Of a DNA stretch of 64,000 nt, positions 34,332 to 58,379 are shown piece after piece. How positions within the stretch are numbered: the stretch's first letter is position 1; every line of letters starts with the position of its first letter. The stretch comes from a virus. Under the pieces are notes generated by a model that was not told the DNA's origin, did not search any database, and saw nothing but the letters and a program-made list of their open reading frames with translations. The position numbers were made by a program, and so were the translations under genes. The stretch spans positions 1-64,000 of IMG/VR virus record IMGVR_UViG_3300037296_000046; one strand, written 5' to 3'.

Positions 34332-34685
34332 ATGAACGATGTCACTACTGCACCTGCTGCTTCGCCTGTCAGCCTGTCTGACCTGAAAGCTGCTCGTGAC
34401 AAACTGAACGCACGCATTGCTGAAGAAACCAAGACCAACCGCAAGAACACCGTTGCGGAAATCAAAGCTCTGGTCGAAGCCTACGACATCCCACAAGATG
34501 AACTGGTTGCTTCTGTTTTCGGCAAAGCTCGCAAAGCTAAGGGTACGGCTACCAAAGCTGAACCTAAGTATCAGAACCCTGCGGACACTGACCAGACATG
34601 GACCGGTAAGGGCCGTCAACCTGAGTGGTACAAGACTGCCATCGAAGGTGGTCAATCCCCAGAGACGATGCTGATTAGCAAGTAA
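34332..34685 (+). CDS. hns: H-NS family nucleoid-associated protein (HvrA-like)
   Basis: N-terminal coiled-coil oligomerisation region; C-terminal PKYQNP...QTWTGKGRQPEW signature; AAGGAG RBS. Confidence 0.92.
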   Translation: MNDVTTAPAASPVSLSDLKAARDKLNARIAEETKTNRKNTVAEIKALVEAYDIPQDELVASVFGKARKAKGTATKAEPKYQNPADTDQTWTGKGRQPEWYKTAIEGGQSPETMLISK

Positions 34686-34981: not shown

Positions 34982-34996
34982 TTGATTGGAAAACAC

Positions 34997-36295
34997 ATGC
35001 CACTGAACTTAGGGCAGAAAAATGCCTCGACAGAGTGTCTCCAATTCCTACTGTCACCAGATAAAGAGTTTCGTATCGCTGGGCCAGCAGGAGTTGGTAA
35101 GACATTCATGTTGAAATACATCATGAATACATTGATCAAGCAGTACGAACAGACATGTAAACTTCTGGGCATCAAGCCTACTGAGTTTGACATTGCTCTT
35201 ACTGCTACGACCAACAAAGCTGCTGAGGTGCTTGCCACTTCTACAGGATACCCAACCCAAACGATCCATAGCTTTATGAATCTACGGGTATACGACGATT
35301 ACTCTAGCGGAGTATCGAAGTGCAATAAGACCCGTTCATGGCATGTCCATCGTGAGACTATCATCTTCATTGATGAAGCCTCTATGGTAGATGAGAACCT
35401 GTACAAGTTCCTCATGGAAGGTACTGATAAGACATGTAAAATCATCTACATCGGTGATCGTCACCAGTTGGCACCTGTCTTTGAGAAGGTGTCCAAGGTC
35501 TATGCTACTGATCATAACTTGGTCGAATTGACTGAGCCAGTACGCAATGCTGACCAGCCTGCGTTGATGAATCTGTGTGAGCAGTTCCGTGATACGGTTA
35601 AGACAGGGGTGTTTAAACCTATTGTCGAAGTTCCCGGAGTCATTGACTTCATTGATGATACCAAATTGGCTCAAATGTTGGATGTCACTCTGAAGCCTGA
35701 AGATGTGGATGCTCGTATCCTCATGTTCACCAATCAGCGTGTCCATGACTATAACGAATATCTTCGTGAAGTTCGTGGACATGGTAAGATGTTTGCCAAA
35801 GGTGAAATCTTGGTAAACAATGCCTCTGTGGAAATCAGTGACAAGATTCAATTGTCAGTAGAACAGCAATTCTTAGTGCTACAAGCTGACACTGATGTTC
35901 GTGAGATTGTAGTATGCCGTAACGATAGTTCTATCGTAATGGACATCTACAAGATGCGGATCACCCATGCTACAAATCCAAATGGTGAAGGCTTTGATGT
36001 CCGTATCCCATACGACATGGAACACTACAAAAAGCTGATGAACTATTTCAGCAACAACAAGATGTGGCCAGATTTCTACAACCTTAAAAACAACTTTCCT
36101 GATCTACGGATGAAGGATGCCTCGACTGTCTATAAGGCTCAAGGCTCCACCTATGAATTCGTGATCCTAGACCTAACTAACATCGGTCTATGTAAGGATG
36201 CTGAACAAACAGCACGGATGCTCTACGTTGGCGTTTCTCGTCCAACCACACGCATTTTCCTTTACGGCAAGCTACCCCCTAAGTACGCTGGCTGA
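34997..36295 (+). CDS. SF1 (Dda/RecD-like) DNA helicase
   Basis: GPAGVGKT, TIHSF, IDEASM, GD.HQLAPV, TVYKAQGST, LYVGVSR. Confidence 0.92.
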   Translation: MPLNLGQKNASTECLQFLLSPDKEFRIAGPAGVGKTFMLKYIMNTLIKQYEQTCKLLGIKPTEFDIALTATTNKAAEVLATSTGYPTQTIHSFMNLRVYDDYSSGVSKCNKTRSWHVHRETIIFIDEASMVDENLYKFLMEGTDKTCKIIYIGDRHQLAPVFEKVSKVYATDHNLVELTEPVRNADQPALMNLCEQFRDTVKTGVFKPIVEVPGVIDFIDDTKLAQMLDVTLKPEDVDARILMFTNQRVHDYNEYLREVRGHGKMFAKGEILVNNASVEISDKIQLSVEQQFLVLQADTDVREIVVCRNDSSIVMDIYKMRITHATNPNGEGFDVRIPYDMEHYKKLMNYFSNNKMWPDFYNLKNNFPDLRMKDASTVYKAQGSTYEFVILDLTNIGLCKDAEQTARMLYVGVSRPTTRIFLYGKLPPKYAG

Positions 36296-36303
36296 ACAAG
36301 TTT

Positions 36304-36377
36304 GGTTCTATAGCTCAATTGGATAGAGCTTCCGCCTCCTAAGCGGGTCTGTGTGGGTTCGAGTCCTACTAGAACCA
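36304..36377 (+). tRNA. tRNA-Arg(CCU)
   Basis: Acceptor GGTTCTA/TAGAACC, D-arm GCTC-AATTGGATA-GAGC, anticodon loop CT-CCT-AA, T-loop TTCGAGT; followed by CCG (no complete encoded CCA). Confidence 0.92.
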
Positions 36378-36379
36378 CC

Positions 36380-36580
36380 GGAGTACGCAGTGGACCTAAG
36401 TTGCCACTGTGTAAGGTCAGGAGCCACCCCCACGGGGCTTCCTGATTACACCCTGCTGTGACCCTTAGAAAAGGTTACAGCGTGGTGGGTAGAGCCTAGC
36501 TCAAGCCCACTGTAGGTGGCTGAGAAGCCGCAGAGAAGGATGAAAGACCTTCGCATCTAGGTGGAAACCCTAGAACCAAC
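36380..36580 (+). ncRNA. Putative structured non-coding RNA (seven tandem hairpins)
   Basis: GC-rich, ORF-free, almost fully base-paired; last three hairpins capped by TGAGAA, ATGAAAGA and TGGAAAC loops; ends ...ACCA. Confidence 0.55.
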
Positions 36581-36596
36581 TCATTAGGAGAGACAT

Positions 36597-37088
36597 ATGC
36601 GGACTTACATCGGCACTAAAATCATCAAAGCCAAACCCATGACACGGGCTGAATACAACACCTATCGTGGGTGGGATTTACCGGAGAATGAAAACGGCGA
36701 TGATGGTGGTTATCTCGTTGAGTACGAAGCAGCACCAAATGTTGAGACAAATCATGTCGATCATGCGGGCTATATTTCGTGGTCCCCAGATTCCGTATTT
36801 GAGGAATCTTATCGTGGTCCGGGAACCATGAACTTCGGCCATGCTTTAGAGATTCTAAAGTCTGGTGGACGCGTCAGCCGTCAAGGTTGGAACGGCAAGA
36901 ACATGTTTATCTTCTTGGTAAACGGTTCAACTTTCACCGTAAATCGTGAGCCACTGCTTTCGATCCTAGGTGAAGGAACAGAGGTCAATTACCACGGCCA
37001 TGTGGATATGAAGACCGCTGACGGCATGATCGTTCCATGGCTCTGCTCGCAAACTGATATGCTTGCAGAAGATTGGGGCATTGCCTGA
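36597..37088 (+). CDS. DUF2829/Tad2-family anti-defence sponge fused to an N-terminal YIGTK...SWSP domain
   Basis: C-half MNFGHAL..LK.G.RV.R.GWNGK.MFI...PW..SQTDMLAEDW (DUF2829); N-half YIGTKIIKA.PM...GYLVEY...YISWSP..VFE.SY; AGGAG RBS. Confidence 0.8.
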   Translation: MRTYIGTKIIKAKPMTRAEYNTYRGWDLPENENGDDGGYLVEYEAAPNVETNHVDHAGYISWSPDSVFEESYRGPGTMNFGHALEILKSGGRVSRQGWNGKNMFIFLVNGSTFTVNREPLLSILGEGTEVNYHGHVDMKTADGMIVPWLCSQTDMLAEDWGIA

Positions 37089-37126
37089 TCAATGGGGCAG
37101 CGTGTTTACACGTTGTCCCAACCTTT

Positions 37127-37206
37127 GTCGGTGTCACTGTAAGTGATGAGTGGGGTTTGATCACCCTTGATCAACTCAGCAGGTGGGAACCCTGCCACCG
37201 GCTCCA
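37127..37206 (+). ncRNA. Non-canonical tRNA-like RNA
   Basis: Acceptor GTCGGTG/CACCGGC, discriminator T, encoded CCA, T-arm GCAGG-TGGGAAC-CCTGC, D-like arm TCAC-TGTAA-GTGA. Confidence 0.65.
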
Positions 37207-37225
37207 TATTACAAATGAGGATGTT

Positions 37226-37723
37226 ATGAGACTTGATTATCTCAAGCTCATCCCCTCCCTGATCGCTTCGGTCATGGGACCGGAGAAAGCTCGTTTCAAA
37301 AAGCTACGCAGCAAATTAGTTGAGGATAACATGAAGTTAGGCGGTAACGTCCTTGGCTTCAGGCACCTTGGCTTGCGCTATAGCAACAACCATCCCCGCG
37401 ATACCAAAGGTGTTCACTTGCCTGCTGTGGAACCATCCTTTAAGGGTGAGGTCCAGCGATTCGAGGCTCTTGTCCTACGGGCAGAACGTGATGAGCAGCG
37501 TCTTCGCCAGTCTCTCACAGTTGTTCTACCGATGTGTGAAAGCCTACAAGACATCCGTGATGTTTTGCCAGAGGTATTCGTAACCGAAATTACACAGCTA
37601 AGCTCTCTCGTAAGAACCAGAGAGGCAGGCTACATACTGAGGGAGCATCCAGTGTTAAAGACCCAATACGATCAAGCTGTAGAGATTGCTCTATTCTACA
37701 CCGTCAATCGTCTGGTATTTTAA
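37226..37723 (+). CDS. N4 gp38-like hypothetical protein
   Basis: GAGG RBS, ATG 37226; C..LQDIRD.LPE...L.RTRE motif; coupled to DNA polymerase. Confidence 0.75.
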   Translation: MRLDYLKLIPSLIASVMGPEKARFKKLRSKLVEDNMKLGGNVLGFRHLGLRYSNNHPRDTKGVHLPAVEPSFKGEVQRFEALVLRAERDEQRLRQSLTVVLPMCESLQDIRDVLPEVFVTEITQLSSLVRTREAGYILREHPVLKTQYDQAVEIALFYTVNRLVF

Positions 37724-40359
37724 TGAAGTATCTGACCTTTGGTAAGACTGAGGCTACTCAGTACAAGATTGCGATCTTGGCATCATCCCTGAACACCGCA
37801 CAGTTCAATACCCACTACATTGAACCATACATGGAAGACTTTCGGGATGATGTAATTGCATACAGTCTTCACAAGTCAGGTAAGAAAACCTCTGTGGCAA
37901 CACAGAAGGAATACCTAGAAGACCTATTGCCTGTCCTCATGGACCTTGGTGTCAAATATCTAGTCGTCACAGATGGCGAGTACTTTAAGACACTCACAAA
38001 ATCCTCCACAATTGATGCTTCCATTGGCTACGTCATGGATTGCATCGTGGGGGATTTTAAAATCGTTTATGCTCCTAACTATGCTCAGGTCTTCTACGAT
38101 CCTGACAAAGTTAAAGTCAAAATGGAACGTGGTTTCTCTGCTCTCAAGGATCATATGGCTGGCACCTATGTCGATCCCGGAGATAGCATCATCCACTATG
38201 CTGATTATCCCAAGACACCTACTGAGATTAAAGCATGGCTGGACAAGCTCTTAGAGCTAAACCTACCCCTCACTGCTGACATCGAAGGCTTCTCCCTGAA
38301 GCACTATGATAGTGGCATTGGTTCCATTACATTCTGCTGGGGTAAGAATGAGGGTATCGCCTTCCCTATTGATATTCGTGAAGCCTATGGACCTCTGAAA
38401 CAGGGTCAAAAGCTAGAGCGATTTCATAACACAGAAGTGCGAGCACTTCTCAAGGATTTCTTTTTGAAATTCAAGAACAAACTGATCTGGCATAACATTT
38501 CCTTTGACGTATACATTCTGGTTTACCAGTTGTTTATGGATCACCTTCTGGACACCGAAGGTCTACTAGAGGGAATGGATGTACTTCTTAACAATTGGGA
38601 ATGTACTAAGCTAATCACCTACTTAGCTACGAATTCCTGTGCAGGAAACAAGCTGGGCCTCAAGTCTCAGTCACATGAATATGCAGGCAATTACGCAGTT
38701 GAAGACATCAAAGACATCACCAAGATACCCATTGATGAGTTGCTAGAATACAACTTGATCGACGGTCTATCCACATGGTTCACCTACGATAAGCACTACG
38801 ATACGATGATCGCTGACCAGCAAGAATCTATCTATGTGGACATCTTCAAGAAGTCGATCTTGGAGATTATCCAGATGCAGCTAACAGGCTTGCCTGTTGA
38901 TATGGCTCAGGTGATTAAGACATCTGACATTCTGGATGGTGAGAATAACATCGTCAAATCTAAGATGATGAATTCGATGGTCGTCCAAGGGTTCACTCCC
39001 TACCTTCGTCAGAAGTGGATGGACACCATGCACTCTAAGTGGAAGGTGAAACGGATCACATTGGCTGAGGTTCCTGTTCGTAAGGAAACCACCTTCAATC
39101 CCGGCAGTCCTGTACAGCTTCAGAAGCTCCTCTTTGATGAGGACTTTATGGGTCTACCTGTTCTTGAACTTACCGACTCCAAACAACCAGCTACAGGTGG
39201 TGATGTCTTAGAGAAGCTCAAGAACCATACGACCAACCCAGAATACCTAGCTTTTCTAGATTATCTGATTGAGTACAAGACCCTCGCAATCATCATCAGC
39301 ACCTTCATTCCAGCCCTCAAGAACGCCTCTCTGGCTCCTGATGGGTGGCACTACATGTTTGGCAGCTTCAACCTAGGAGGCACGCTCTCAGCCCGTCTGA
39401 GCAGCAGTAATCCTAACCTGCAAAACATTCCTGCCTCTGGTGCAACCAAGGCTAAGCAACGCTTGGCCAAGATGATCAAGAAGTGCATCAAAGCCCCTCC
39501 GGGCTGGCTTTTCGTGGGTTTAGATTTCTCGTCACTGGAAGACAGAATATCTGCCGTTACAACCCGTGATCCAATGAAGCTGAAGGTCTACACCGATGGC
39601 TTCGATGGTCACTGTCTTCGGGCATATGCTTACTTCAGTGATCAGATGCCTGACATCATTGGGGATAGTGTCAAATCTATCAACTCTATTTCCAAGATGT
39701 ATAAGCACCTTCGTCAGATCAGCAAGGCTCCAACTTTTGCCCTGACATACCAAGGCACCTATCACACGCTCATGGCTAACTGTGGGTTCAGTGAGGAACT
39801 GGCTAAGGCAATCGAGGCTAGTTACCACAAGCTGTACGTTGTCTCTGACGAGTGGGTGGCTGACAAGCTGAAGCAGGCAAGCAAAGACGGTTATATCACG
39901 GCAGCATTTGGTCTGCGTGTTCGTACCCCCTTGCTCAAGCAGGTGATTCTTGGCACCAAGTCCACTCCGTTCGAGGCAGCAGCCGAGGGACGGACAGCAG
40001 GTAACGCTCTGGGGCAGTCATGGGGTTTGCTCAACAACCGAGCAGCTTCAGAGTTTATGGCTAAGGTCCGTAAGAGCAAATACCGTCTGACAATACGTCC
40101 CTGTGCTCATATCCATGATGCTCAGTATTATATCATCAAGGATGATCTAGAGCATGTAGAATGGATGAATACTCATCTCGTAAAAGCAGTCCAATGGCAG
40201 GAGCATCCTGACATTGCTAACGATGATGTGAAATTGGGTGGAGAACTTTCGATCTTCTATCCAGACTGGTCAGTAGAATTGGAAATTCCCAATGGTGCAG
40301 ATCAGAATAAAATATCTGAAATGGCTGAACAGCATTACTTAGAGAAATGCGCAGCTTAA
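37723..40359 (+). CDS. Family A DNA polymerase (N4 gp39-like)
   Basis: Exo DIEG, HNISFD, YNLID; RLSSSNPNLQNIP; motif A DFSSLEDR; motif B R..SKAPTFALTYQG; motif C IHDA. Confidence 0.95.
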   Translation: MKYLTFGKTEATQYKIAILASSLNTAQFNTHYIEPYMEDFRDDVIAYSLHKSGKKTSVATQKEYLEDLLPVLMDLGVKYLVVTDGEYFKTLTKSSTIDASIGYVMDCIVGDFKIVYAPNYAQVFYDPDKVKVKMERGFSALKDHMAGTYVDPGDSIIHYADYPKTPTEIKAWLDKLLELNLPLTADIEGFSLKHYDSGIGSITFCWGKNEGIAFPIDIREAYGPLKQGQKLERFHNTEVRALLKDFFLKFKNKLIWHNISFDVYILVYQLFMDHLLDTEGLLEGMDVLLNNWECTKLITYLATNSCAGNKLGLKSQSHEYAGNYAVEDIKDITKIPIDELLEYNLIDGLSTWFTYDKHYDTMIADQQESIYVDIFKKSILEIIQMQLTGLPVDMAQVIKTSDILDGENNIVKSKMMNSMVVQGFTPYLRQKWMDTMHSKWKVKRITLAEVPVRKETTFNPGSPVQLQKLLFDEDFMGLPVLELTDSKQPATGGDVLEKLKNHTTNPEYLAFLDYLIEYKTLAIIISTFIPALKNASLAPDGWHYMFGSFNLGGTLSARLSSSNPNLQNIPASGATKAKQRLAKMIKKCIKAPPGWLFVGLDFSSLEDRISAVTTRDPMKLKVYTDGFDGHCLRAYAYFSDQMPDIIGDSVKSINSISKMYKHLRQISKAPTFALTYQGTYHTLMANCGFSEELAKAIEASYHKLYVVSDEWVADKLKQASKDGYITAAFGLRVRTPLLKQVILGTKSTPFEAAAEGRTAGNALGQSWGLLNNRAASEFMAKVRKSKYRLTIRPCAHIHDAQYYIIKDDLEHVEWMNTHLVKAVQWQEHPDIANDDVKLGGELSIFYPDWSVELEIPNGADQNKISEMAEQHYLEKCAA

Positions 40360-45558: not shown

Positions 45559-46602
45559 ATGATTCTGGACCTACCTACCTCTGTTATGGTGTCAAAGAAG
45601 AAGAAATTCTATCTTAACCTTAACCAGTATCGTAATACTCACTTCACTGTATTGAATAATGCTAAGATTGCTTTCAGCAATATAGTGATTAAAAGAGTGC
45701 AAGCTCTGCCATCATATGATGTGATTAAACTTACCTATACACTGTTCCCCAAAACAAGAGCACTCTGTGACGTAGCGAATGTATGTAGTATAGTTGATAA
45801 GTTCTTTTCTGATGTGATGACACACTGTGGTAGAATCCAAGATGACAACTACCTCTTTCTCCCTGAAGTAACCTATCGCTTTGGGGAGATTGATAAAGAG
45901 AACCCTCGTGTCGAAGTTCTAATTGAAAGTTTCAATACCACTATGACACAAATCACCGAAACACCCAAGGAGCCTGATCCAATGCGTACTACGCTTAATG
46001 ATCAAGAAATCAAACTGGCAATTGCCGAGTTTGTTCAGAACCGTTTCAAAGGCACCATCAATGAAGCAGTAGAAATGATCGTCACATCTGACGAGAATGG
46101 CCTGTCTGCTACGATGGAGCTTACCCCTAATGCCATGGAGGGTAATGTAGCTGCCCCTTTGGCTCAATCGGTAGAGTCTGTGGTGCAAACTTCAGCCCCT
46201 ACCCCAAACCCCGTAAAGGCAGAGAAGGCGGATACGAAGCCTACTTCTTCCCCGAAAGCTGAACCAAAGAAGCAGGAGGCTAAACCTACTGTGAAAAGCC
46301 TCTTTGGTAATCAGAAGAACAAGGCAGAAATCAGCGAAAGCAATGATGCTGCCAAGGCTGAAAACGCTGCTGCAAACATCTCTGCTGGGGATGACGTAGA
46401 GCGTGAAGACCCTAAGCAGGTTGAGGCTGAGGCACCTGAGACAGTAGCAGAGGAAGTCACTGAGACATCTGGTGCAACTGCTCAACAGCCCTACGCTGAA
46501 GACGATAACGAGCAAGAGGTGGACCCTGAAGCAGTGATGCAACAGGAAGAAGCCAAAGCTGAACAGCCACGTCCATCCATTTTCGGCTTCGGTAAGAAGT
46601 AA
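45559..46602 (+). CDS. RusA-like Holliday junction resolvase N-domain in frame with a second low-complexity protein
   Basis: LNLNQYRN...DVAN..SIVDKF..D.....G.I.DDN...DKENPRVEV (RusA-like); internal AAGGAG RBS + ATG at 45982. Confidence 0.75.
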   Translation: MILDLPTSVMVSKKKKFYLNLNQYRNTHFTVLNNAKIAFSNIVIKRVQALPSYDVIKLTYTLFPKTRALCDVANVCSIVDKFFSDVMTHCGRIQDDNYLFLPEVTYRFGEIDKENPRVEVLIESFNTTMTQITETPKEPDPMRTTLNDQEIKLAIAEFVQNRFKGTINEAVEMIVTSDENGLSATMELTPNAMEGNVAAPLAQSVESVVQTSAPTPNPVKAEKADTKPTSSPKAEPKKQEAKPTVKSLFGNQKNKAEISESNDAAKAENAAANISAGDDVEREDPKQVEAEAPETVAEEVTETSGATAQQPYAEDDNEQEVDPEAVMQQEEAKAEQPRPSIFGFGKK

Positions 46603-47360: not shown

Positions 47361-50300
47361 TCAGCTTGACAGGTTAATCCAAGGGTTAAGTGATGGGAAC
47401 GACCACAACATGTCCCAGCCCACAGAGTAGCCCAGACGATCACTCAGCCACACAGCCATGAAGTTATCCGTCACTGGGGAGCCAAGGTCCAGACCAGCCA
47501 TGCCAACGCCTGTTGTGAGCATCATGGTACGCAGTGGGTTCTCACGAGCCATAGCCAGAGCAGTCTTCATTATCCGAAGTTTAAAGTTCCAGAACCAAGT
47601 GAGGCCAATGCTCTCAGAGTAGGAACGGGTACGGCCCGGATTGATGTTAAAGTTCACAAACTCATTGGAAACCTTATCCATTGCATCCTGTGGTGACAGC
47701 TTATCCGTATCTAGGATATGCTGATACATGATCGCTTTACCCAAGAAGTCACCATACTGAACAGCACGGCTCATACCCTGATACAATGACGTGTTTGGTT
47801 CAACCAAAGCGTTATCATAGATGGCTTTACCAGTGTCATTCAGTTCCACTTTGAACTTCTTGCTGACCTTTTCTACCTGATCCTTGATCCAATCCACATA
47901 CCCACCATTGGTTAGGCTCTCATCAAGCTCAGTCATACCCTCAGAGATGGTCGAGAACTCACCAGCGGCAAGCAGTGGTGCAATGCTCAGACGACGCTCA
48001 GCGTCGAGCACAGCCTCTCTACGGGCATTGAGCTTACGCAGCTTGTTGGTGTCACCACCAGCAGCGTTAATCTCTGTGTCGATCAGCTTTAGTTTCTTCT
48101 GGTTACGAATGTGGGCAGTGATTTCCACAATCACCTTACGCATACCTTTGAAGATGTCACGATATGGGACACCACGGCTGGCAAGCTGTTGGATGTTCGA
48201 TGCGATGTTGATCGAAGGAACCACCACAGACCGGATCACGATCCAATCCTTAGCTGTACTGACAGCAGTTTGCAGTGCTTTCTCACCAGTCACGATGTAC
48301 CGGAAGCTATCCATACCGAAGAAGTCAGAGATTTCCTTAGAAAACTTCTCAGACCATTCCTTTGGCACACGGGTTGCACCAGTCCACAGATCACCAACAC
48401 TAGGATTACGATACCCTAGAGCGTTGTTGATAAGGTCTTCACGGACCATGAAGCCACCATTCTCACCATACACTTTGGCGATATAAGCCTTAGTAGCAGG
48501 TGGGATTGTACCCCAAGTGTCCTTCCAAACCTTGTCACTGGAAGCTGAGATGTCGATATACTCCCGTTCACGATTGGTCTTCTTGTCTTCAATCCAACGC
48601 TCATGCAGGCGATCTACAAGAGCCTGATTGAATTGCTGAGCCATGGATTCCTCTGACTGACGACCAGCCCAAGCACCCATCATTTCGATGAGGTTCTCTT
48701 TACGGTTCAAAGTGGTAGCCACTTCTGGATCAACAGAACGCTCATAACCAATCACATCACCCTTGTCATTGAAGATTGGCAAGAGGCTCTCATTAGGGTT
48801 GTTCTCAGCATTATTGCCAAGACCCTGACGCTTGCTGATCCATTTGGTCACAGCACCGACTGTATCACCACCATATGAGCCAGACACGAGGATGCCACTG
48901 GTTGTACGACCCGTCATAGGATCGACACCAAAGTAGCTATCCTGAACCGTTTGCATCACGCCTTGAAGGTAGGAAGATTTCCCCGATACCGTGGAAAAAT
49001 AGTACCCTTTACGAGTGCGATCAATGCTACGACCTTCCCCCACATAATCCTTTACCCGAATGAAGCCCTGACGGATCATCTTTTCGTGGTCCGAATCATC
49101 TGCAATTGTCAGCTTCACACCGTCCTGTGCCTCATGTGGAATGAAGCCATGGTAAGCATTGAGCTTAGCAGTCAGCATCTTGCCATTCTCTTTCTTGCTT
49201 TCAGCAAGGCTTTGAGCAGCAACAGTAAGCATCATGAAGCTAAGAGCATCATAATCTTCTTCTGCCAGACGCTTCATGGTGTCTTTAGCAACTTGCTCTT
49301 GGCCTTCCATACCATAGAGAGTGACCAATTCACGGATGGCTTTCACCATGTCAGCTTTAGGAACACCGATCTTATCAGTGGTATTCAGCAGACGGGCAAT
49401 TGCATCAGCGTTGCGAAGCAGGTTGTCACCAGCAATGCCAGTCACGTTGAACTTAGCTAACTGCTTGGATTTGCTGATATATTGAGCACCTTTAGGGTGC
49501 TTACCAATCTCAGTTTCCAGCTTCTTAATACGATCTAGCAGCTTGCTCTCATCAGTGAACATGTCAATGATCTGAGAAACCTTCAAAGAACCTACGTTTG
49601 CAATGCCAGTCTTACCAATAGCTTGGAACAAGTGCTTGTGCTCTTGCTCAGTCAGCTTAGTCTTAAACTTGCTATTCAGGATCACTGGCAGGTCAATACG
49701 ATAGTGTTGACGCTGAGCAGACACCTTAGCTTTCACGATATTAAGCATACGCAGGACTGCTTTATTCTCATCAGTCATACCAATAACTTCGATGAGGATT
49801 TCCTTCATCGGAATTACATGGGTGTTCTTATTCTGGTTAGCAAAAGCAATGGCAGCATCAGCCAATGCAGCACCACGAGTTTGGCTCATGATACCAGACA
49901 TTAAGTTCATGCTCTGGAAAGCAGCACGCTTCAGCTTGTTCGTTTCACCCTTCAGGCTCTTGTCAGCAAAGCTACCCAGACGCTCACCATTACGGTCCAT
50001 GAACTTAGAGATGCGTGCATCTCCTGCTTCAGCAAGCCCCTGTACGGTGTTCTCAAGCAGAGTGTTGGTATCAACCTCAATGGCACCCAGTGTCTCTGTC
50101 AGGTTGTCCAGAGCCTCTTGTACGTTGCTGTTCTTGGCTCCTTCATTCTTGATGCTGACACTCAGCAGATCGACAAAGGAGTTACCCAAAGAGTCCACAG
50201 CTTTATCCATAGAGGAGAAATCTAGCTGGGCAGCTTTAGGTATAGCCTTACGAGCCAAGACCTCACGGAAGCCTTCATCCGTTTGGTTCAGAGCCAAGAA

Positions 50301-53300
50301 CGAGGACAGCAGCGACGAGTTACCCTGTGCATCCTTGAAGATACCATTGCCACCAGTGAGGGTTTGAAACTTCTTGTTAGCCTCAACCCACTCGCTAGGA
50401 GCGTTGTTCTGAGGGTCTTCCATCTCAGGGTTCTCTAGGAAGTCAGCAGGTGTCAGGTCTTCCATGACCAGATCGTAGAGCTTCTGAGCACGAACCAGAG
50501 CCAAGCTATCCATCTTCATCACTGTGGCCATAGCCGTGGTGACGCTCATGAAGGTTTGACGCTGCAAGGCATCCATAGGGAAGCCATTGCTGGCAAATGC
50601 AGCAGCAGTGTTTGAAGCCAGAATGGCACCCTTCACATCAGCAAATTCTGTGTTCTCATAGATGAATGGATCAACGATGCTCTCACGGGTCAGGATACTG
50701 GCCACCTTCTCATCAAAGCGTTGTGCCACAGCCTTCAGGCGTGACTTGCTAGATGGGAAAGACTGGTTCAACCGAACCACAGCAGGGACATTGTAGGTAT
50801 ACCCATTGTCATCATTCAGCACCAATTGAGTGTTGAACAGGACGTTGGAGAAGATGTCACCCTTATTGGAGCCAAACAAACGAGCCATCAGGGTTTTAAC
50901 CTTCTTGGTCAGTTGGGTCAGCACGTTCATATTACGCGATTCTTTAGCCAGCTTGATGAGGTTCTGGTTGGTCAGTGTCCAAGCCATGTACTCATTCAAT
51001 GCACCAGCTTGAGCCAGAGCACCAAGTTTGCTTTCCTTAGATTTCCATTTCTGGATTTGAGCCTTAGCGTTATCAGCCACTTCCTGCATCTGAGGAGTGT
51101 CATATGTCATATCCGAATTCATGAAGTCATTCATGAAAGCCTCAAGACGCTTCACAGCATCCTGTGCAGCAGGCTTCAAGGTATTCTGGTTCATGTAGTA
51201 GGAATAGATTTTCTGGAACGTAGCAGCGTGAACAGCTTCGTGCATGGCAGTCTCAGCAGACTGGTTTGCTACATAGACGATGTTGTTGTCAAAGTCGATT
51301 TGTCCCTTAGAAATCCGGGACTTAGCAGCACCTTTGATCGGCATAAGATCACGATACTCAGTCAAATCCTTGGCAGAACCAAAGGCAAAGGTCATCCCCT
51401 TTGGCATGTTGCCCTTCATAGTGGACAGCAGGATTTTAAGATCATCGCTTAGGTTTGGATCATTCTCCATCATAGTGATGTAGGTTTCACCATCCATAAC
51501 AGTCATGCCCATGCCTTCAATCTCTTGGCCATACTTTTTGACCAATGCTTTGAAAGGCTTATTCTGCTTTTCTACTTTATCACCTTCATCTGTAATACGC
51601 TCATACGCCTCACGAGTACGCTTATTAAGCTCATCAACGATGTCACCCTCAATAAGATCACCTTCATGGGTATAGGCAGATTCAGCAGAAGCCATGTGGT
51701 CAGTAGAAGACAGAATTGAACTCATAGCCTCAATGCGTGCATCACGCTTATTGGACATAGTATTCAGGTTCTTATGAACCGATTTCATCATGATACCCAA
51801 GGTGGTACGAGCATCAAGAGTATCCTCATATGGACTAACCAGCTTGAAGATTTCATGCACTACATCATCACTGAATTCGGCCAGTGGGTCCAACCGCATG
51901 AAGGCATTGAAGCTGTTCGACACAGGACGGATAGCATTGATCTGCCAGCCCTCAAACGAGGCTTGGTTCATGTCCTGAGACACCTTGTCCATCTCATCGG
52001 CAGCAGCTTCCTGACCGTCAAAGACAGGCAGTGTACGGATGCTATAATCAATCATCTGGTAGTAGATGTTCATCATGTTCGCATCACCACGAGAGATGGT
52101 CAGAGAAGGCGAAATACGGACACCAGCAATGGATGGAGACTGGATGCTAGAGGCACCAGCCAGCTTGTCATCCATTGTCGTAGCCAGTGTGTATTCGCTC
52201 TCACCCTTACGGGCTGAACCAACGTCGATGGGTTGGAAGTCATCACCAATCACTGCACCGTAGGGCATCAATTCACGATAGATGGCACCCAATTCTGCAT
52301 CACTAAGGAAGTCAGCATTAGCATTGCCTTCTTCCTGACGGATTTCTTCCAGACGTTCAGCTACACGAGCATTGAACATTTTGATCATCACAGCAGACTG
52401 GATTTGAGTAGCCTTCTGAAGCATCTCAGTTGTCAGACTGGTTTCACCCATCAGCTTATCAATAGAGTTACCCATTGGATCAACCAACAAAATGCGGATG
52501 TTGTTCTTAGCATTTTCAAACTGCTTACCAGAGAAGGTAAAACCTACTTTATCACTGAAAGCTAAGTCACCTACTGGGGCATCATCTAACCAGTATTTGC
52601 CTTTCTTAGTGATACGGATTTTACCATCGAACAACAACCGGATGTCATCTTCAAACTTGGTTTCACCTTCAGCGTATTCATCCTCGAATACAGCATCTTC
52701 ATCCAGCTTGATAAAGTAATCACTGATATTGGACTGATTACCCTGCATGTCATTAGTCATGGATTCGTAGATCATTTCCATCATGGCATTGGTGACGTTA
52801 GAAGCAATACCATCCTGACCAGAACCATATACGGTAATGGTAAGTGGGTTCTTCAGAACACCCCGGCCAATCTCATATTCACCACTATCTTCGTTAAACT
52901 TCAGTTCACCGAATTTGCTCAGAAGACGCATCATAGCATCAAAGCGATCAATGACTTCTTCATTGCCTTGCTGACGTAGCTTAATGCTTAGGTCACTCAA
53001 TTCACGCTTCAGGTCTTGTGCAGCTTCGTCATACAGGTCTTCTGATTCACCCTCTGCACGGTTTTGGTAATGATCATTCAGCGTCTTATCACGGACGTTT
53101 GCAAACCAACCACCTTTAGCCAACAGACGCAATTGCTCTGCGGTAAAGGCACCAGTCACATAGTGCATCATAGCGTTGATTGGACCGTCAGTTTTACCGT
53201 CAGCCTCCAAGGAAAGCATGTGCTCAAACTCAGTGATTTCAGTGAAGTCCTGAGAAGCCAGTGCATAGTTCAGCTTGGCTACAGCCAGCAGGGAGTGCAT

Positions 53301-56300
53301 CAGTTTGGCAGAGCCACCCTGACCAATCTCAGCCTTCATTGCCTCAATCTCACTAGGCAGCATTTGCTCATCTGCACGGCCAGTCTCACGGCTACGAGCA
53401 TACCATTGAACCATGGCTTCTAGGGATTCCCCATATTTCTTATTCAACTTATCCTGTACTGTTTCAATGCTAACAGAACGGAATTGATATTCTGTTTTTA
53501 CAATCCCAGAGGATTGAGCAACAGTCATCCAGAACAATTGCTGATCTTCAGGCTTGCTCATATCCAGTTTGGATACAGTAGCAATGAAAGCCTCACGAGC
53601 AATCTTATCGGACTGAGGACCAAAGCCTTCCATATGGTGACGGCCAACCTTGGTGATGTACCAGTTGTAATAGCTAGGTGTCTGATTTGCATCAGCACCA
53701 TTTTCCAAAGCCCATTCCTTAACTCGTGCATCATGATCCATGACACCATCAAAACCATTACGCAGGGAAGTATTCTTACCTACGATGGATTCCAAATGGT
53801 TCTTGTTAGTCAGGGTATCATCTTCAGATTTAGAGCCAAGAAGGAATTCAAATTCCTGCTTACCAATAGCCTGCATCATCCCCAAGAATGGGGAGTTACG
53901 CATAAAGGCAATGTTCTGCAAAGCCTTCAGGGTCTTTTGCTCATAGTCTGTGATGTCGATGTACTTGTTATTCTTCTGGGTCTTAGGCAGAGCAGTATGC
54001 TTGGAGCCAATACGAACCTTAGTATCAGACTTCTCCTCGAAGCTCATATCCTCAAACATAGAGATTGCAGGACCAACCTCCTCTTTGATGTTAGCCACCA
54101 AAGGAGTTTTGCCAGAGATACTCAGCATCTCAATGGTGACATCCTTGCCACCAATCTCACGGACGATCTGGAATTTCTTACGAGTAAAGAAGCCAGATTT
54201 AGAATCCTTCTCTACATACCCACTGTCATTGTAGTTACCGTCTTTATCTTTGCTACGCTTGTTAGCAAGAATTTCCTGATCATTGGTCATCACCATGAAC
54301 AGTTCAGCACCTAGGGCTTCTGCAAGACCCTGAGTGTTGGACAGCGATTGCTTGCTATCAACCTTAACACCCCAGAAGCGCATGATTTCACGACCCATTT
54401 CCTCACGGATTTGCTCGCTAGGTTTACCGAAGTTGAAAGCATTGACCTCATTCTGTGTGATGTTACCTTCCTCTAAGCCCATGATTTCAGCGATGTCTTT
54501 CCGTGATTTGAACGGAGCATCGAATGTAGTCATGGCATAGTGCATGGCAGCAATCACAGCAGTCTCAACCAACCGCTTGTCGTATTTCTGGGTCTTCATA
54601 TCTACCAGAGACAGAGCCAGACCACGGCGCATATCTAGGACCGAAGCACCAGCTTTGGACTTCTGACCCTCAAGATCATTGAGGGCATCCAGCATAGATA
54701 CACCCTTAGTAAACATGACTGTTTTCAGACGCTCGTTCACGTTCTTAACAATCTCAGGTGCAGAGATTTCCATCAGTTCTTGGAAAGCCATAGTACGCTT
54801 ACGGTTGATCCGATATTCCGTAGGATTACGCATGAAGTCCTTGATAGCATCATCACCTTTATTGATGACAGCCATCAGATCAGTCAGTGGAGACAGCAGA
54901 TCAGCGATCTTAGATTTGTCTTTCACACGGGTCAGAGCAGAGACAAAGCGGTTCAGCTTACCCGGAACAGCAGCCAGATTTGGGTTCATTTCCGTAGCTG
55001 GATCGACTGGCTCAACAGCTTCCTCTACCTCTGCTTCCACAGGAGCATTAGCAGCCTTCTCAGCAGCTTCCATGGCATCAGCTTCACTCAGGTTCAGCAG
55101 AGCATCCTCAGCCTCAATCTGAGCGTCCTTGAGGCCAGTACCAGCCTTAACGGGTCGAGCAGGAGCCACAGGTTCAGCAACAGTTTCCACAGCCTCTACA
55201 GGCTTCTTGGCAGCTTCTTCAAAGGCAGTAGCCTCAGACATCTCAGCAATACGCTTTTCTTCAGCGATCACATCGGCTTCTGCTTTAGCTTTACGAGCAG
55301 CTTCCTCAGCAATGTCAGCCTCTAAGGCAGCAGTCTCTAGAGCCTGTTCAGCAAGACGAGCATCTTCAGCTTCGATCAAGACATCCTTCATAGATGCTTT
55401 GCCCGTAGGTGCAGCAGGAGCTTCAGGTGTCTTAGGCTTAGGTGGAACCACCACAGCTTCAGGTGCAGCCTCATCCGACTTGGTACGCTTGCCAAATACA
55501 GGAGCCAAGGCAACCTTCTCAATCTTGGTCCCACCCAATTCAGGGTAGGTTTCGACCACATCATTATACAGGTCGATTGCCAAGTTTGTATCACTCTCAA
55601 CCAGACGAGCAGTGCTCACATGGTTAGGATTGGTAGGCTGACTATATGCTTCACCATACAGTTCTTTATCTTCATTCATTTCCAATGGCTTGAAGATGTT
55701 CACAGTCTGGTAGAATTGCTTGTTGTCCTTGCTACGATCACTGGACGAGATACCAGCAGATTCGTTGTAGGCGTTCAGCTTGTTGATCTGGTGCTGTACG
55801 AAATTGCCAAGGATTTGTAGTTGCTCAGGAGCAGTACGGTCTTCACCGTTTTGATCTACAGATGTACCCTTGTTCACAGCATTTGTGATGTTGATCAGGT
55901 GCTTGCTCAAGGATGGCAGGGTAATAGATGTACCATTGCTAAGACGTAGCTTGTAGTCTTTGGCGATGATTTCTTGACGTACATCCTTGAAATTCTTACC
56001 ATTTTTGAGTTTGGTTTCTTCCTCACGGCCTTGGTTCTGAGACTCGATACGTTCTTCTTCGATGTCTACACGATCCTGAGCAGCCTTGCTGGCGTTCTCT
56101 GAGAAGTTGGCAGCAGTCTTCAGCTTCTTCTTACGAGGCTCATTGTAGGTTGCGTCACCATCGTCTTCTTGATCCAGAACCACACGAGCAAACTCAGGGT
56201 TCACACCACCGGGATTTACATCTGCTACGGCATCAACACGAGCTACGGAGCTAGGAGTGACTTCAGGTGCAGGGGCAGCACTGTCATCAATCTGAGCCAA

Positions 56301-58331
56301 GCTCTTGATGGAGTTTACAATAGACGGGTTACTGGCAATGACAGTCAGAGCACTGTCCATCGTACCCAGCAGTTCACGGACCATCTCAGAGTTTTCATTC
56401 TCTGGTAGGTTCGCATTATTTACAGTCTGGGTGACAGAGGCAAAACGATCCAGTTCATTCCGAAGGTAGACATACATGTCAACTTTCTGGTCTTCAGTGG
56501 TAGCTTTGTCTTCCAGCTTTTGAAGCACCTTGTTGAACACCTGCATACGGTGAACAGCTTCGACAGGAGCACCAGTCTCATCCGTGATGTCTAGGATCAA
56601 ATCCTGCATCGTACCGGACTGTTGATCCAAGATGTCTAGGTTTACAAAGCTCTGGTCCTTGATCAGAGCAGCAGTATCCAAGTCTTCAGGTGTCTCAGAG
56701 GCTTCCAGTGCAGTGATCGTAGCAGCAGTAGCAGCTACCGTCCCGTCAATCGTTTCCAGAGTAGCCTTCTTACCCGATGGGTTAGAGGCATCCATATTGG
56801 CACGGTTCGTCTCTTTGACTGCTTCAATCTCTTTCTTAGCGAAGTCACGAGCACCATTCACACCTTTAGCAATGGTATTTCCGATACCATCACCAAGATC
56901 ATTTACAGCTTTGACACCTTCAACAGCAGTGTTGATAGCACCTGTAGCCAGCAATTGTGGACCCTGAGTACCAGCCACCATACCGATACCACCAGCGGCA
57001 CCCTGTGCAGTGTTCTCACCCACACCTTCCATGATGTCCTGAGTAGTATCAGCACCCGTAGAGATGGCGTAGTTCGTAGCCATTTGGCCCGTACCACCTT
57101 GGTATGCTTCTTCAGCAGTCTCACGGAACAGGTTGCCAATGATTTCAGCACGGCCAGCTTTAGCCAGTGGGTTAGCTTCAAAGTTTTTGACAGCGAAACC
57201 AGCCAACATAGCAACAGGCAATTGGATCGCAGCAGCCTTGATACCAGTCATGTTTGCAACACGGCTCTTGGCAGCATCAGGCTCCATGCCTTGTTCAATC
57301 AGTTCGTTATAATCTGGGGAGTTAGCTACCAGTTCCTCAGTTGTCATATCCATGACAGCAGTGACGGTCTGAGAGTGGACACCAGCAGCTTCAGTACCAG
57401 CAATGGAGGCAGGCACAGCAACACGAGCCAAGGTGTTAGCCATGGTTTCTTTGGCACTCATACCACCAAGCTGATTGATCAGAGCACGCTCAGTCTTCGT
57501 TACGAGGAATGGAGCAGCAGCTTTAGCTACCGTACCAGCAATCTTTGCCGATGGACCCAGAGAGCCAAGACCTTGAGCAGCTACAGATGCAAATTCTGTA
57601 GGGTTTTCAAGCAGCAGGCCACCAGAGTCCATGATGTCCAAACCAAAGCGGTGCAGTCCAGCAGTAAACTCACCAACTGTAGGATTAGATTTAGCCCATT
57701 CTTTCGTCTCACGAGCATTGTCAGCAGCATCACCTTGACGCTGGATACCCAAAATTTCTTGACGATCCTGATCTTCTTGGCTCTTACTCTTATTGGCCAA
57801 CTCGCTGAAATCATTGACACCTTCAATGACAGCGTTACCCCATTTGCTGAGGTAGTTGTCTTCAGAACCCATAGCTTCCAGAGCCATGCCCTCAAGGCTC
57901 AGACCAGCACCTAGGATTGAACCAGCAATGCCAACCGTACCATTGACTACATCTACGGAGAGGTCAGCAGCAGTGTCATACAAGCCACGATCTACTTCGA
58001 GCTTCTTAGCTACATTCTGACGAGCTTCATTTCCTTTGAAAGCACCATAGGCCACTTCTTCCCCATACTTCTGAACCAATCCACCAAAGGATTCGTTCTC
58101 GAAGTCAGCCATAACCTGAGCACCAATAGCTTCGTTGTTGTTATCACGAAGGGCATATTGCTGTTCAGCAAACGCAGGATCACCCAACATACGTTGAGCA
58201 ATCTCTTGGTTTGTAGGCATGTTAGGGACAGGGTTCAGTGGTGTCTCAGTGACAGCAGCTACGGCACCGAAGGTATTCAGTCCTTGGGAGAGGCTAGTTG
58301 TAGAAACTTTATTGCCTGCATCAGCGACCAT
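47361..58331 (-). CDS. Virion-encapsidated RNA polymerase (N4 gp50-like vRNAP)
   Basis: ~3650 aa; TKVGRH, motif A LEADGKTDGP, motif B RGVLKNPLTITVYGSG, motif C VFDG; no Cys seen; ATG 58331 with AAGGA RBS. Confidence 0.96.
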   Translation of the reverse strand: MVADAGNKVSTTSLSQGLNTFGAVAAVTETPLNPVPNMPTNQEIAQRMLGDPAFAEQQYALRDNNNEAIGAQVMADFENESFGGLVQKYGEEVAYGAFKGNEARQNVAKKLEVDRGLYDTAADLSVDVVNGTVGIAGSILGAGLSLEGMALEAMGSEDNYLSKWGNAVIEGVNDFSELANKSKSQEDQDRQEILGIQRQGDAADNARETKEWAKSNPTVGEFTAGLHRFGLDIMDSGGLLLENPTEFASVAAQGLGSLGPSAKIAGTVAKAAAPFLVTKTERALINQLGGMSAKETMANTLARVAVPASIAGTEAAGVHSQTVTAVMDMTTEELVANSPDYNELIEQGMEPDAAKSRVANMTGIKAAAIQLPVAMLAGFAVKNFEANPLAKAGRAEIIGNLFRETAEEAYQGGTGQMATNYAISTGADTTQDIMEGVGENTAQGAAGGIGMVAGTQGPQLLATGAINTAVEGVKAVNDLGDGIGNTIAKGVNGARDFAKKEIEAVKETNRANMDASNPSGKKATLETIDGTVAATAATITALEASETPEDLDTAALIKDQSFVNLDILDQQSGTMQDLILDITDETGAPVEAVHRMQVFNKVLQKLEDKATTEDQKVDMYVYLRNELDRFASVTQTVNNANLPENENSEMVRELLGTMDSALTVIASNPSIVNSIKSLAQIDDSAAPAPEVTPSSVARVDAVADVNPGGVNPEFARVVLDQEDDGDATYNEPRKKKLKTAANFSENASKAAQDRVDIEEERIESQNQGREEETKLKNGKNFKDVRQEIIAKDYKLRLSNGTSITLPSLSKHLINITNAVNKGTSVDQNGEDRTAPEQLQILGNFVQHQINKLNAYNESAGISSSDRSKDNKQFYQTVNIFKPLEMNEDKELYGEAYSQPTNPNHVSTARLVESDTNLAIDLYNDVVETYPELGGTKIEKVALAPVFGKRTKSDEAAPEAVVVPPKPKTPEAPAAPTGKASMKDVLIEAEDARLAEQALETAALEADIAEEAARKAKAEADVIAEEKRIAEMSEATAFEEAAKKPVEAVETVAEPVAPARPVKAGTGLKDAQIEAEDALLNLSEADAMEAAEKAANAPVEAEVEEAVEPVDPATEMNPNLAAVPGKLNRFVSALTRVKDKSKIADLLSPLTDLMAVINKGDDAIKDFMRNPTEYRINRKRTMAFQELMEISAPEIVKNVNERLKTVMFTKGVSMLDALNDLEGQKSKAGASVLDMRRGLALSLVDMKTQKYDKRLVETAVIAAMHYAMTTFDAPFKSRKDIAEIMGLEEGNITQNEVNAFNFGKPSEQIREEMGREIMRFWGVKVDSKQSLSNTQGLAEALGAELFMVMTNDQEILANKRSKDKDGNYNDSGYVEKDSKSGFFTRKKFQIVREIGGKDVTIEMLSISGKTPLVANIKEEVGPAISMFEDMSFEEKSDTKVRIGSKHTALPKTQKNNKYIDITDYEQKTLKALQNIAFMRNSPFLGMMQAIGKQEFEFLLGSKSEDDTLTNKNHLESIVGKNTSLRNGFDGVMDHDARVKEWALENGADANQTPSYYNWYITKVGRHHMEGFGPQSDKIAREAFIATVSKLDMSKPEDQQLFWMTVAQSSGIVKTEYQFRSVSIETVQDKLNKKYGESLEAMVQWYARSRETGRADEQMLPSEIEAMKAEIGQGGSAKLMHSLLAVAKLNYALASQDFTEITEFEHMLSLEADGKTDGPINAMMHYVTGAFTAEQLRLLAKGGWFANVRDKTLNDHYQNRAEGESEDLYDEAAQDLKRELSDLSIKLRQQGNEEVIDRFDAMMRLLSKFGELKFNEDSGEYEIGRGVLKNPLTITVYGSGQDGIASNVTNAMMEMIYESMTNDMQGNQSNISDYFIKLDEDAVFEDEYAEGETKFEDDIRLLFDGKIRITKKGKYWLDDAPVGDLAFSDKVGFTFSGKQFENAKNNIRILLVDPMGNSIDKLMGETSLTTEMLQKATQIQSAVMIKMFNARVAERLEEIRQEEGNANADFLSDAELGAIYRELMPYGAVIGDDFQPIDVGSARKGESEYTLATTMDDKLAGASSIQSPSIAGVRISPSLTISRGDANMMNIYYQMIDYSIRTLPVFDGQEAAADEMDKVSQDMNQASFEGWQINAIRPVSNSFNAFMRLDPLAEFSDDVVHEIFKLVSPYEDTLDARTTLGIMMKSVHKNLNTMSNKRDARIEAMSSILSSTDHMASAESAYTHEGDLIEGDIVDELNKRTREAYERITDEGDKVEKQNKPFKALVKKYGQEIEGMGMTVMDGETYITMMENDPNLSDDLKILLSTMKGNMPKGMTFAFGSAKDLTEYRDLMPIKGAAKSRISKGQIDFDNNIVYVANQSAETAMHEAVHAATFQKIYSYYMNQNTLKPAAQDAVKRLEAFMNDFMNSDMTYDTPQMQEVADNAKAQIQKWKSKESKLGALAQAGALNEYMAWTLTNQNLIKLAKESRNMNVLTQLTKKVKTLMARLFGSNKGDIFSNVLFNTQLVLNDDNGYTYNVPAVVRLNQSFPSSKSRLKAVAQRFDEKVASILTRESIVDPFIYENTEFADVKGAILASNTAAAFASNGFPMDALQRQTFMSVTTAMATVMKMDSLALVRAQKLYDLVMEDLTPADFLENPEMEDPQNNAPSEWVEANKKFQTLTGGNGIFKDAQGNSSLLSSFLALNQTDEGFREVLARKAIPKAAQLDFSSMDKAVDSLGNSFVDLLSVSIKNEGAKNSNVQEALDNLTETLGAIEVDTNTLLENTVQGLAEAGDARISKFMDRNGERLGSFADKSLKGETNKLKRAAFQSMNLMSGIMSQTRGAALADAAIAFANQNKNTHVIPMKEILIEVIGMTDENKAVLRMLNIVKAKVSAQRQHYRIDLPVILNSKFKTKLTEQEHKHLFQAIGKTGIANVGSLKVSQIIDMFTDESKLLDRIKKLETEIGKHPKGAQYISKSKQLAKFNVTGIAGDNLLRNADAIARLLNTTDKIGVPKADMVKAIRELVTLYGMEGQEQVAKDTMKRLAEEDYDALSFMMLTVAAQSLAESKKENGKMLTAKLNAYHGFIPHEAQDGVKLTIADDSDHEKMIRQGFIRVKDYVGEGRSIDRTRKGYYFSTVSGKSSYLQGVMQTVQDSYFGVDPMTGRTTSGILVSGSYGGDTVGAVTKWISKRQGLGNNAENNPNESLLPIFNDKGDVIGYERSVDPEVATTLNRKENLIEMMGAWAGRQSEESMAQQFNQALVDRLHERWIEDKKTNREREYIDISASSDKVWKDTWGTIPPATKAYIAKVYGENGGFMVREDLINNALGYRNPSVGDLWTGATRVPKEWSEKFSKEISDFFGMDSFRYIVTGEKALQTAVSTAKDWIVIRSVVVPSINIASNIQQLASRGVPYRDIFKGMRKVIVEITAHIRNQKKLKLIDTEINAAGGDTNKLRKLNARREAVLDAERRLSIAPLLAAGEFSTISEGMTELDESLTNGGYVDWIKDQVEKVSKKFKVELNDTGKAIYDNALVEPNTSLYQGMSRAVQYGDFLGKAIMYQHILDTDKLSPQDAMDKVSNEFVNFNINPGRTRSYSESIGLTWFWNFKLRIMKTALAMARENPLRTMMLTTGVGMAGLDLGSPVTDNFMAVWLSDRLGYSVGWDMLWSFPSLNPWINLSS

Positions 58332-58350
58332 GGTGAATTCCTTGAATGGC

Positions 58351-58379
58351 AAAAAGGGGAGAAACTTGTTCCCCCCCTT
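58351..58379 (-). terminator. Rho-independent terminator just upstream of vRNAP
   Basis: Minus strand AAGGGGGGAA-CAAG-TTTCTCCCCCTTTTT. Confidence 0.65.

Follow-up and report, generated by a model that had tools for sequence, protein, structure and literature searches.

The phage gene analysed here encodes a 163-aa protein built from two domains, a C-terminal immune-signal sponge of the Tad2 family and an N-terminal module that recurs beside other sponges and has no name. The explanation that we favor, at roughly even odds, is that it is a phage counter-defence protein in which a Tad2 sponge is joined to a dimerising accessory module. The C-terminal half would be a conventional short-insertion Tad2 sponge, tetrameric by homology, that sequesters a TIR-made ADP-ribose-derived signal; the N-terminal 76 residues would form a separate, highly constrained module for dimerisation or assembly. 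A first-pass annotation had proposed a two-domain protein with two sponge halves, the N-terminal one possibly Acb4-like, that would act against both Thoeris and CBASS. Its two-domain architecture is borne out: the C-terminal half is a Tad2-family sponge with the gcADPR pocket conserved, and the N-terminal half is a separate domain that accompanies immune-signal sponges.

The coding sequence, with an ATG start, occupies positions 36597..37088 (+ strand, stop codon included) of the window, the 64,000-nucleotide stretch of viral DNA that was analysed (positions 1 to 64,000 of IMG/VR record IMGVR_UViG_3300037296_000046), and a Shine-Dalgarno sequence, AGGAG, stands 6 nt before the ATG (36586..36590, +). 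According to IMG/VR, the source record is complete, at 75,869 bp with direct terminal repeats. It is an N4-like phage, and among its genes are that of a virion RNA polymerase (vRNAP) of 3663 codons (47361..58352, − strand), a Dda-like helicase (34982..36295), a family-A DNA polymerase (37723..40359) and primase, SSB and resolvase-like genes. The nearest cultured relative by DNA is Stenotrophomonas phage Philippe, which is weakly similar. The protein as a whole belongs to an established phage family, since phrog_872 matches residues 1-162, its whole length, at E = 1.1e-55. There are 2392 homologues of the full protein at E ≤ 1e-3, the best 120 of which cover 94-100% of the query, and the closest full-length homologue among the matches listed is 76% identical. 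A PF11195 search of the 75.9-kb record found one Tad2 domain, the match in this gene being recovered on the genome; equivalent searches for Acb4 (PF13876) and Sequestin gave no match across the record and were silent in control genomes too.

Several features of the surrounding DNA are recorded here as observations in their own right. A tRNA-Arg gene with anticodon CCT lies right behind the helicase gene at 36304-36379 (+), 217 nt 5′ of the two-domain gene (ARAGORN; Rfam tRNA, 62 bits). The intergenic stretch that follows (36380-36596, +) can fold into some seven strong hairpins in succession, with a minimum free energy of −90.5 kcal/mol compared with −66.3 for shuffled sequences (z −5.7; none of 200 shuffles as good); this row matched no Rfam family, and Rfam detected only the tRNA over 36200-37400. 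Just 3′ of the stop codon, a 12-bp hairpin (37093-37120) precedes a branched fold (37086-37230, +; z −3.0); the terminator scan detected no terminator with a T-run behind the gene in this interval, and no promoter or terminator signal scanned for around the gene exceeded shuffle expectation. The next open reading frame (37073-37723, +) has a listed TTG start that overlaps the end of the Tad2 gene; from its in-frame ATG at 37226 it would encode a 165-aa protein with a whole-length match to phrog_4881, a family of unknown function. Upstream, the 117-aa product of 34332-34685 (+) carries an H-NS C-terminal DNA-binding domain (PF00816, E = 2e-14) and is a phage-encoded H-NS-like protein.

The first-pass assignment of the C-terminal ~85 residues to DUF2829 is confirmed by sequence and fold alike. 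The Pfam family PF11195 (Tad2-like) matches residues 78-162 (36828..37082, +) at E = 2.8e-25, with 89.1 bits against a cut-off of 25 and 72 of 73 profile positions aligned. Phmmer searches of PDB sequences matched ModTad2, SPO1 Tad2 and HgmTad2 at E = 6e-19 to 1e-14 and 43-46% identity. The full-length AlphaFold2 (AF2) model (pLDDT 94.4, pTM 0.79) retrieved ModTad2, SptTad2, HgmTad2 and SPO1 Tad2 in Foldseek at E = 5.6e-9 to 4e-6, with 40-49% identity and target-normalised TM scores of 0.67-0.90; ModTad2 scored best (E = 5.6e-9, TM 0.83-0.90).

To evaluate the pocket, we used the phmmer alignment to locate the ligand contacts described by Yirmiya et al. and Li et al., which for gcADPR in SPO1 Tad2 are W25, N26, I63, T65, D67, H71, W73, S76, T78 and D79. 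Nine of these ten positions are kept or conservatively replaced. W25 and N26 correspond to W98 and N99 in the GWNGK loop (G97-K101; 36885..36899, +), and I63, T65 and D67 to M138, T140 and D142, with M138 equal to M76 of HgmTad2. W73, S76, T78 and D79 correspond to W148, S151, T153 and D154 in the motif WLCSQTD (W148-D154; 37038..37058, +), which also aligns with W87, L88, S90, T92 and D93 of HgmTad2. The sole contact change is that of the water-coordinating H71 of SPO1 Tad2 to V146. In HgmTad2 and SptTad2, an insertion of 35-41 residues between β2 and β5 forms a cyclic-dinucleotide (CDN) pocket; the corresponding insertion here, between β2 and the next core strand, is ~26 residues (109-134), near the 24 of SPO1 Tad2 and short of the length that marks the CDN-binding subgroup. 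Because the insertion is short and SPO1-like and the contacts are kept, this half looks gcADPR-competent and looks like a gcADPR-type sponge lacking the known CDN pocket.

Ligand specificity is not readable from sequence within the Tad2 family, where the ligand may be gcADPR, His-ADPR, N7-cADPR, a cyclic dinucleotide or cUMP, depending on the member: ModTad2, which is equally close to the present protein, has His-ADPR and cUMP as its ligands and is inactive against type I Thoeris. The pocket motif nevertheless favors gcADPR, since the SQTD found here is that of SPO1 Tad2 and HgmTad2 and not the SVSD of ModTad2. Judged from the alignment, the ligand is most likely the 1''-3'/1''-2' gcADPR of type I Thoeris. 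Tad2 proteins are homotetramers with two pockets between non-dimeric protomers, and the same assembly would be expected of this half. Database labels suggest another function, an anti-CRISPR activity of the AcrIIA7 type: phage records carry homologues under the label 'anti-CRISPR protein', and the PDB gives HgmTad2 entries the title AcrIIA7 or 'Inhibitor of Type II CRISPR-Cas system'. Yirmiya et al. argue, however, that the system which DUF2829 proteins counter is Thoeris and not CRISPR, and we regard this function as very improbable.

The N-terminal half (residues 1-76; 36597..36824, +) is likewise a domain in its own right, as the first-pass annotation had proposed for the N-terminal ~75 residues. 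The AF2 model of residues 1-76 has a pLDDT of 94.7 and a beta-alpha-beta-beta-alpha order of elements (strand 10-16, helix 17-24, strand 37-43, strand 60-64, helix 65-71), and residues 1-76 match no Pfam family. A phmmer search of 1.84 billion representatives returned 1516 with the domain at E ≤ 1e-3, placed at the N-terminus, in the middle, at the C-terminus or alone in proteins of 76 to 416 aa. A profile search with the N-domain alignment as query found 6529 proteins of 41-209 aa among 90%-identity clusters; the single-sequence word-index search, by comparison, returned 1 protein, which reflects an index limit. The family is part of phrog_872, phrog_9467 and phrog_32732, and its members come from phages of Proteobacteria, Clostridium and Bacteroides.

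Conservation in this family is high and does not depend on the neighboring domain. The N-domain is ~50-70% identical across proteins whose other domains differ in fold, and the motifs singled out in the first-pass annotation (YIGTK, PM, GYLVEY, SWSP and VFE..Y) are indeed conserved columns. Fourteen polar or aromatic residues (K8, R17, Y20, N21, R24, W26, E32, D36, E42, Y43, N52, Y59, S61 and S63) are 90-100% conserved, and they are kept equally in Tad2, Sequestin, Acb4, stand-alone and unrecognised-partner contexts.

Known structures offered no convincing match for this fold. Foldseek against the PDB gave a best E of 1.9, and the top-scoring of 48,161 chains compared by VIA-align reached Z 3.9 (DUF1653, 3be3; rmsd 2.0 Å over 50 aligned residues), which is within noise; further VIA-align matches, to Tudor, chromo and CarD-like barrels at Z 2.5-3.4, lie within the tool's stated noise as well. 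In BFVD, the matches were to uncharacterised phage proteins of the domain's own family only, including the RyR-domain protein of Yersinia phage TG1. The N-domain profile searched against PDB sequences gave weak Tad2 rows only, from fused partners.

The more specific proposal that the N-domain is Acb4-like is not supported by sequence or profile comparison. Acb4 corresponds to PF13876 (Chang et al. 2024), which has no match in the 163-aa protein at E ≤ 1; hhalign gives a probability of 23% over 12 edge columns only; and elsewhere Acb4 adjoins the N-domain as a separate domain, as in proteins P0180, P0186 and P0228. The structure of SPO1 Acb4 (PDB 9E4W) is absent from the Foldseek and VIA-align match lists of the N-domain, an absence that does not exclude a shared fold. 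Two other identities were rejected. Sequestin (PF21825) is an all-helical antiparallel dimer, whereas the N-domain model is mainly beta, with no Pfam match and an hhalign probability of 0.4%. A degenerate duplicate of the C-terminal strands of Tad2, which the resemblance of SWSP..VFE..Y to W..SQTD..EDW might suggest, received hhalign probabilities of 0.1-0.3%.

The N-domain does have one relative in a protein that has been studied experimentally. RyR Tad, gp68 of Pectobacterium phage vB_PatP_CB1, is a two-domain protein described by Fedorova et al. 2026 (bioRxiv 10.64898/2026.06.04.730250). The N-domain is 32% identical to gp68 over 71 residues by BLASTP (E = 3e-5), and its profile aligns to gp68 residues 3-70 in hhalign with a probability of 96.3% (E = 1.9e-9). 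On the strength of these two matches, the N-domain and the N-terminal domain of gp68 belong to one family. In the reported gp68 crystal dimer, the N-domain is swapped: β1 enters the other protomer and completes a five-stranded sheet (Fedorova et al. 2026).

A homodimer model of residues 1-76 points to the same arrangement. Its ipSAE is 0.50 (runs 0.52, 0.50 and 0.49), compared with 0.00 for the best of three controls; of proteins with known structures, 20 of 30 solved as one-chain pairs attained a mark of 0.50, as did 1 of 23 solved as single chains. Between runs, at least 96% of contacts agree, with partner pLDDT of at least 83, and the tightest predicted contacts are between residues 1-6 of one copy and 7-13 of the other. 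In the monomer model residues 1-10 have a lower pLDDT (75), which fits an exchanged strand. The β1 exchange predicted in this way, which expresses model confidence and not a measurement, matches the crystal description for gp68.

These results suggest how the accessory module might work. Strand β1 (residues 1-6) of one chain would join the sheet of the other chain, and this exchange may hold sponge protomers together in pairs or connect sponge oligomers, the N-domain itself binding no signal. Assembly of this kind would explain why β1 exchange is predicted and why residues 1-10 are modelled less confidently in the monomer, and it is the only explanation with experimental support, which comes through gp68.

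The company that the N-domain keeps argues for a different role, namely that it is itself a sponge for another signal, with a pocket at the dimer interface and a fold that is not Acb4-like. We took a census of partners over the best 150 of the 1516 N-domain representatives. The partners recognised by Pfam were Tad2 (45), Sequestin (PF21825, 45), Acb4 (PF13876, 15), the Acb2/Tad1 hairpin (3, at E ≤ 1e-3) and RyR (1). Domain parsing of the same 150 gave 38 N-Tad2 proteins, 35 N-Sequestin proteins and 9 with the N-domain alone; combinations with Acb4 were also present, including the triple fusions Acb4-N-Sequestin and N-Acb4-Tad2. Given that PF13876 is Acb4 and PF21825 is Sequestin, every recognisable partner in this set is a published immune-signal sponge. 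Sequestin was itself found through its fusion to Tad2 and Acb4 (Tal et al. 2025), so the same fusion logic, extended by the triple fusions, would mark the N-domain as a sponge; the fusion screen of that study used Pfam, where the N-domain is absent.

By the same domain parsing, 35 of the 150 representatives join the N-domain to an unrecognised region, the largest cluster of such partners comprising 7 regions that are Acb2/Tad1-like. In P0132, P0139, P0152, P0168, P0230, P0248 and ~30 others, partner regions of 45-340 aa had no match to Pfam, Tad2, Sequestin or Acb4; by the logic that led to Sequestin, these regions are candidates for further sponge families.

The N-domain also occurs by itself, which counts for a second sponge as well. 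Stand-alone genes include P0148 (76 aa) and P0382 (78 aa); proteins of 77-93 aa form Atlas clusters that have 78-114 members, and BFVD contains entries of 65-92 aa. Some apparent stand-alones, P0126 and P0138 among them, are truncated Tad2 fusions. A second sponge would also account for R17, Y20, N21, R24, W26, E32, E42, N52 and Y59 being invariant to partner. Moreover, several conserved N-domain residues fall in the predicted dimer interface, and known sponges hold their ligands at such interfaces.

Against a second sponge, the N-domain has no fold match to solved sponges or nucleotide-binding proteins at the scores given above, and the gp68 experiments favor the other half. By itself, gp68_N (residues 1-86) is reported to show no apparent effect on type I Thoeris, while the RyR-like C-terminal half alone inhibited type I Thoeris and bound gcADPR; in the available text on the RyR Tad crystal, the pocket for 1''-3' gcADPR belongs to the C-terminal domain, with none mentioned in the N-domain (Fedorova et al. 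2026). The one defence system mentioned in that text for the split halves is type I Thoeris. In addition, gp68_N is a divergent member of the family that lacks R17, N21, R24, W26, E42 and the N52 loop; with most of the conserved polar residues gone, its negative result transfers only weakly to the present protein. A second sponge thus appears to have good circumstantial support and one weakly transferable negative experiment against it. We consider it a serious but less probable account that this ~70-aa module is an unrecognised family of immune-signal binders, bolted onto sponges to cover an additional signal; the pocket at the dimer interface is likewise possible rather than probable.

Alternatively, the N-domain could bind a host or phage protein, either to block a defence sensor or effector, as Tad3-Tad8 do, or to shield the sponge from Panoptes-type sensing. 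Conserved surface residues that are independent of the partner domain would suit such a role, homodimeric protein-binding Thoeris inhibitors are known (e.g., Tad3), and because sponges trigger Panoptes, selection for a protective add-on is conceivable. The weak likeness to small β-barrel protein and peptide binders (Tudor, chromo and the RNA-polymerase-interacting domain of CarD/Mfd, at Z 2.5-3.4) points the same way, but these fold matches are at noise level and the partner protein is hypothetical. As the domain occurs in phages of Proteobacteria, Clostridium and Bacteroides, the target would also need very wide conservation. We judge protein binding to be rather unlikely.

The assembly module that we favor leaves three points unexplained. 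A pure dimerisation module would not be expected as a free-standing gene, yet stand-alone forms exist. The partner-independent conservation of polar and aromatic residues looks more like that of a binding site than of a mere interface. Finally, the partner sponges Tad2, Acb4 and Sequestin already form oligomers by themselves, which leaves no obvious need for a further dimerising unit. It is these three points, together with the weak transfer of the gp68_N negative, that hold the accessory module to about an even chance, with a second sponge appreciably behind and a protein binder well behind that.

An anti-signalling hotspot in N4-like phages has been defined by Fedorova et al. 2026 (bioRxiv 10.64898/2026.06.04.730250), and in the cultured N4-like phages ECBP1, KP8 and Bas96 the same N-Tad2 gene lies within it, directly upstream of the vRNAP gene. 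The ECBP1 copy is ECBP1_0057, of 163 aa; that of KP8 is gp095, which has an Acb4 gene close by with one small ORF in between. In the present phage, the gene has a different address from that in the cultured phages, between the helicase/tRNA-Arg genes and the DNA polymerase gene, and the canonical hotspot between the SSB and vRNAP genes is occupied by a resolvase-like gene and a 152-aa ORF. The first of these (45559-46602, +), at the Bes1 position, encodes a 347-aa Holliday-junction-resolvase-like protein (phrog_1682, E = 1.9e-34); the second (46820-47278, +), at the Bes2 position, matched no Pfam or PHROG family. tRNA genes are also found near the N-Tad2 genes of ECBP1, KP8 and Bas96. At the Bas96 locus (1501-1968), the N-domain match begins at 1501 but the annotated CDS Bas96_0022 only at 1534, and the start as deposited probably cuts short the strand exchanged in the dimer.

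Since Tad2 sponges are well understood, the C-terminal half adds only another member to its family. The useful result is the N-terminal half, a small, very conserved and unnamed domain that occurs with at least five unrelated sponge families and also alone, in a family of more than 6,500 clusters at 90% identity (proteins of 41-209 aa) that has no Pfam entry. Should the domain be a structural clamp, it would show phages building multivalent sponge assemblies from interchangeable parts. Should it bind a signal or a defence protein, it would constitute a new counter-defence family missed by Pfam-based fusion screens; and if it is a new family of binders, its unrecognised partners (~38 of 150) would point to further sponge families. 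Because the same gene is present in the cultured E. coli and Klebsiella N4-like phages ECBP1, KP8 and Bas96, the question of what the N-domain does is directly testable.

Comparison with known systems places the protein closest to Tad2 in one half and to RyR Tad in the other. The C-terminal 86 residues resemble SPO1 Tad2, HgmTad2 and ModTad2 in sequence and fold, in the motifs GWNGK and W..SQTD..EDW and in having a short insertion of the SPO1 type; the 76-aa N-terminal domain, by contrast, is absent from every solved Tad2. The N-domain motifs had no occurrence in those supplements of Hadary et al. 2025 that were available, which were checked for an assayed two-domain Tad2, and the TVC preprint (10.64898/2026.07.21.739742) does not mention Tad2 or Sequestin. 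Acb4, of the N4 gp49 family (PF13876), shares with the N-domain its company alone, in that both occur among phage anti-signalling genes and sometimes in the same polypeptide; Acb4 has no sequence or profile similarity to the N-domain, and the present phage record is without a PF13876 match. Lockin, with its curved β-rich protomer, cog-like hexamer and K/S/T/K pocket, is unlike the 76-aa beta-alpha-beta-beta-alpha model, a comparison made by description only.

Sponge-sponge fusions such as Acb4-Tad2 of Pm86, Tad2-Sequestin, and Acb4-Sequestin of Ab09 gp59 (Tal et al. 2025; Fedorova et al. 2026) resemble the present protein in carrying anti-signalling modules on one polypeptide, and the N4-like genomic setting is common to this gene as well; in those fusions both halves are demonstrated sponges, whereas the N-domain is a candidate sponge only. 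RyR Tad is the nearest parallel in architecture, having an N-terminal domain of the same family, likewise N-terminal to a gcADPR-sponge domain and likewise in an N4-like phage. The two proteins differ in the sponge half, which is helical and RyR Repeat12-like in RyR Tad and here is Tad2, β-rich and tetrameric in its family. They differ also in the shared domain: gp68_N is divergent, whereas the N-domain of the present protein belongs to the mainstream, highly conserved clade that keeps R17, N21, R24, W26, E42 and N52.
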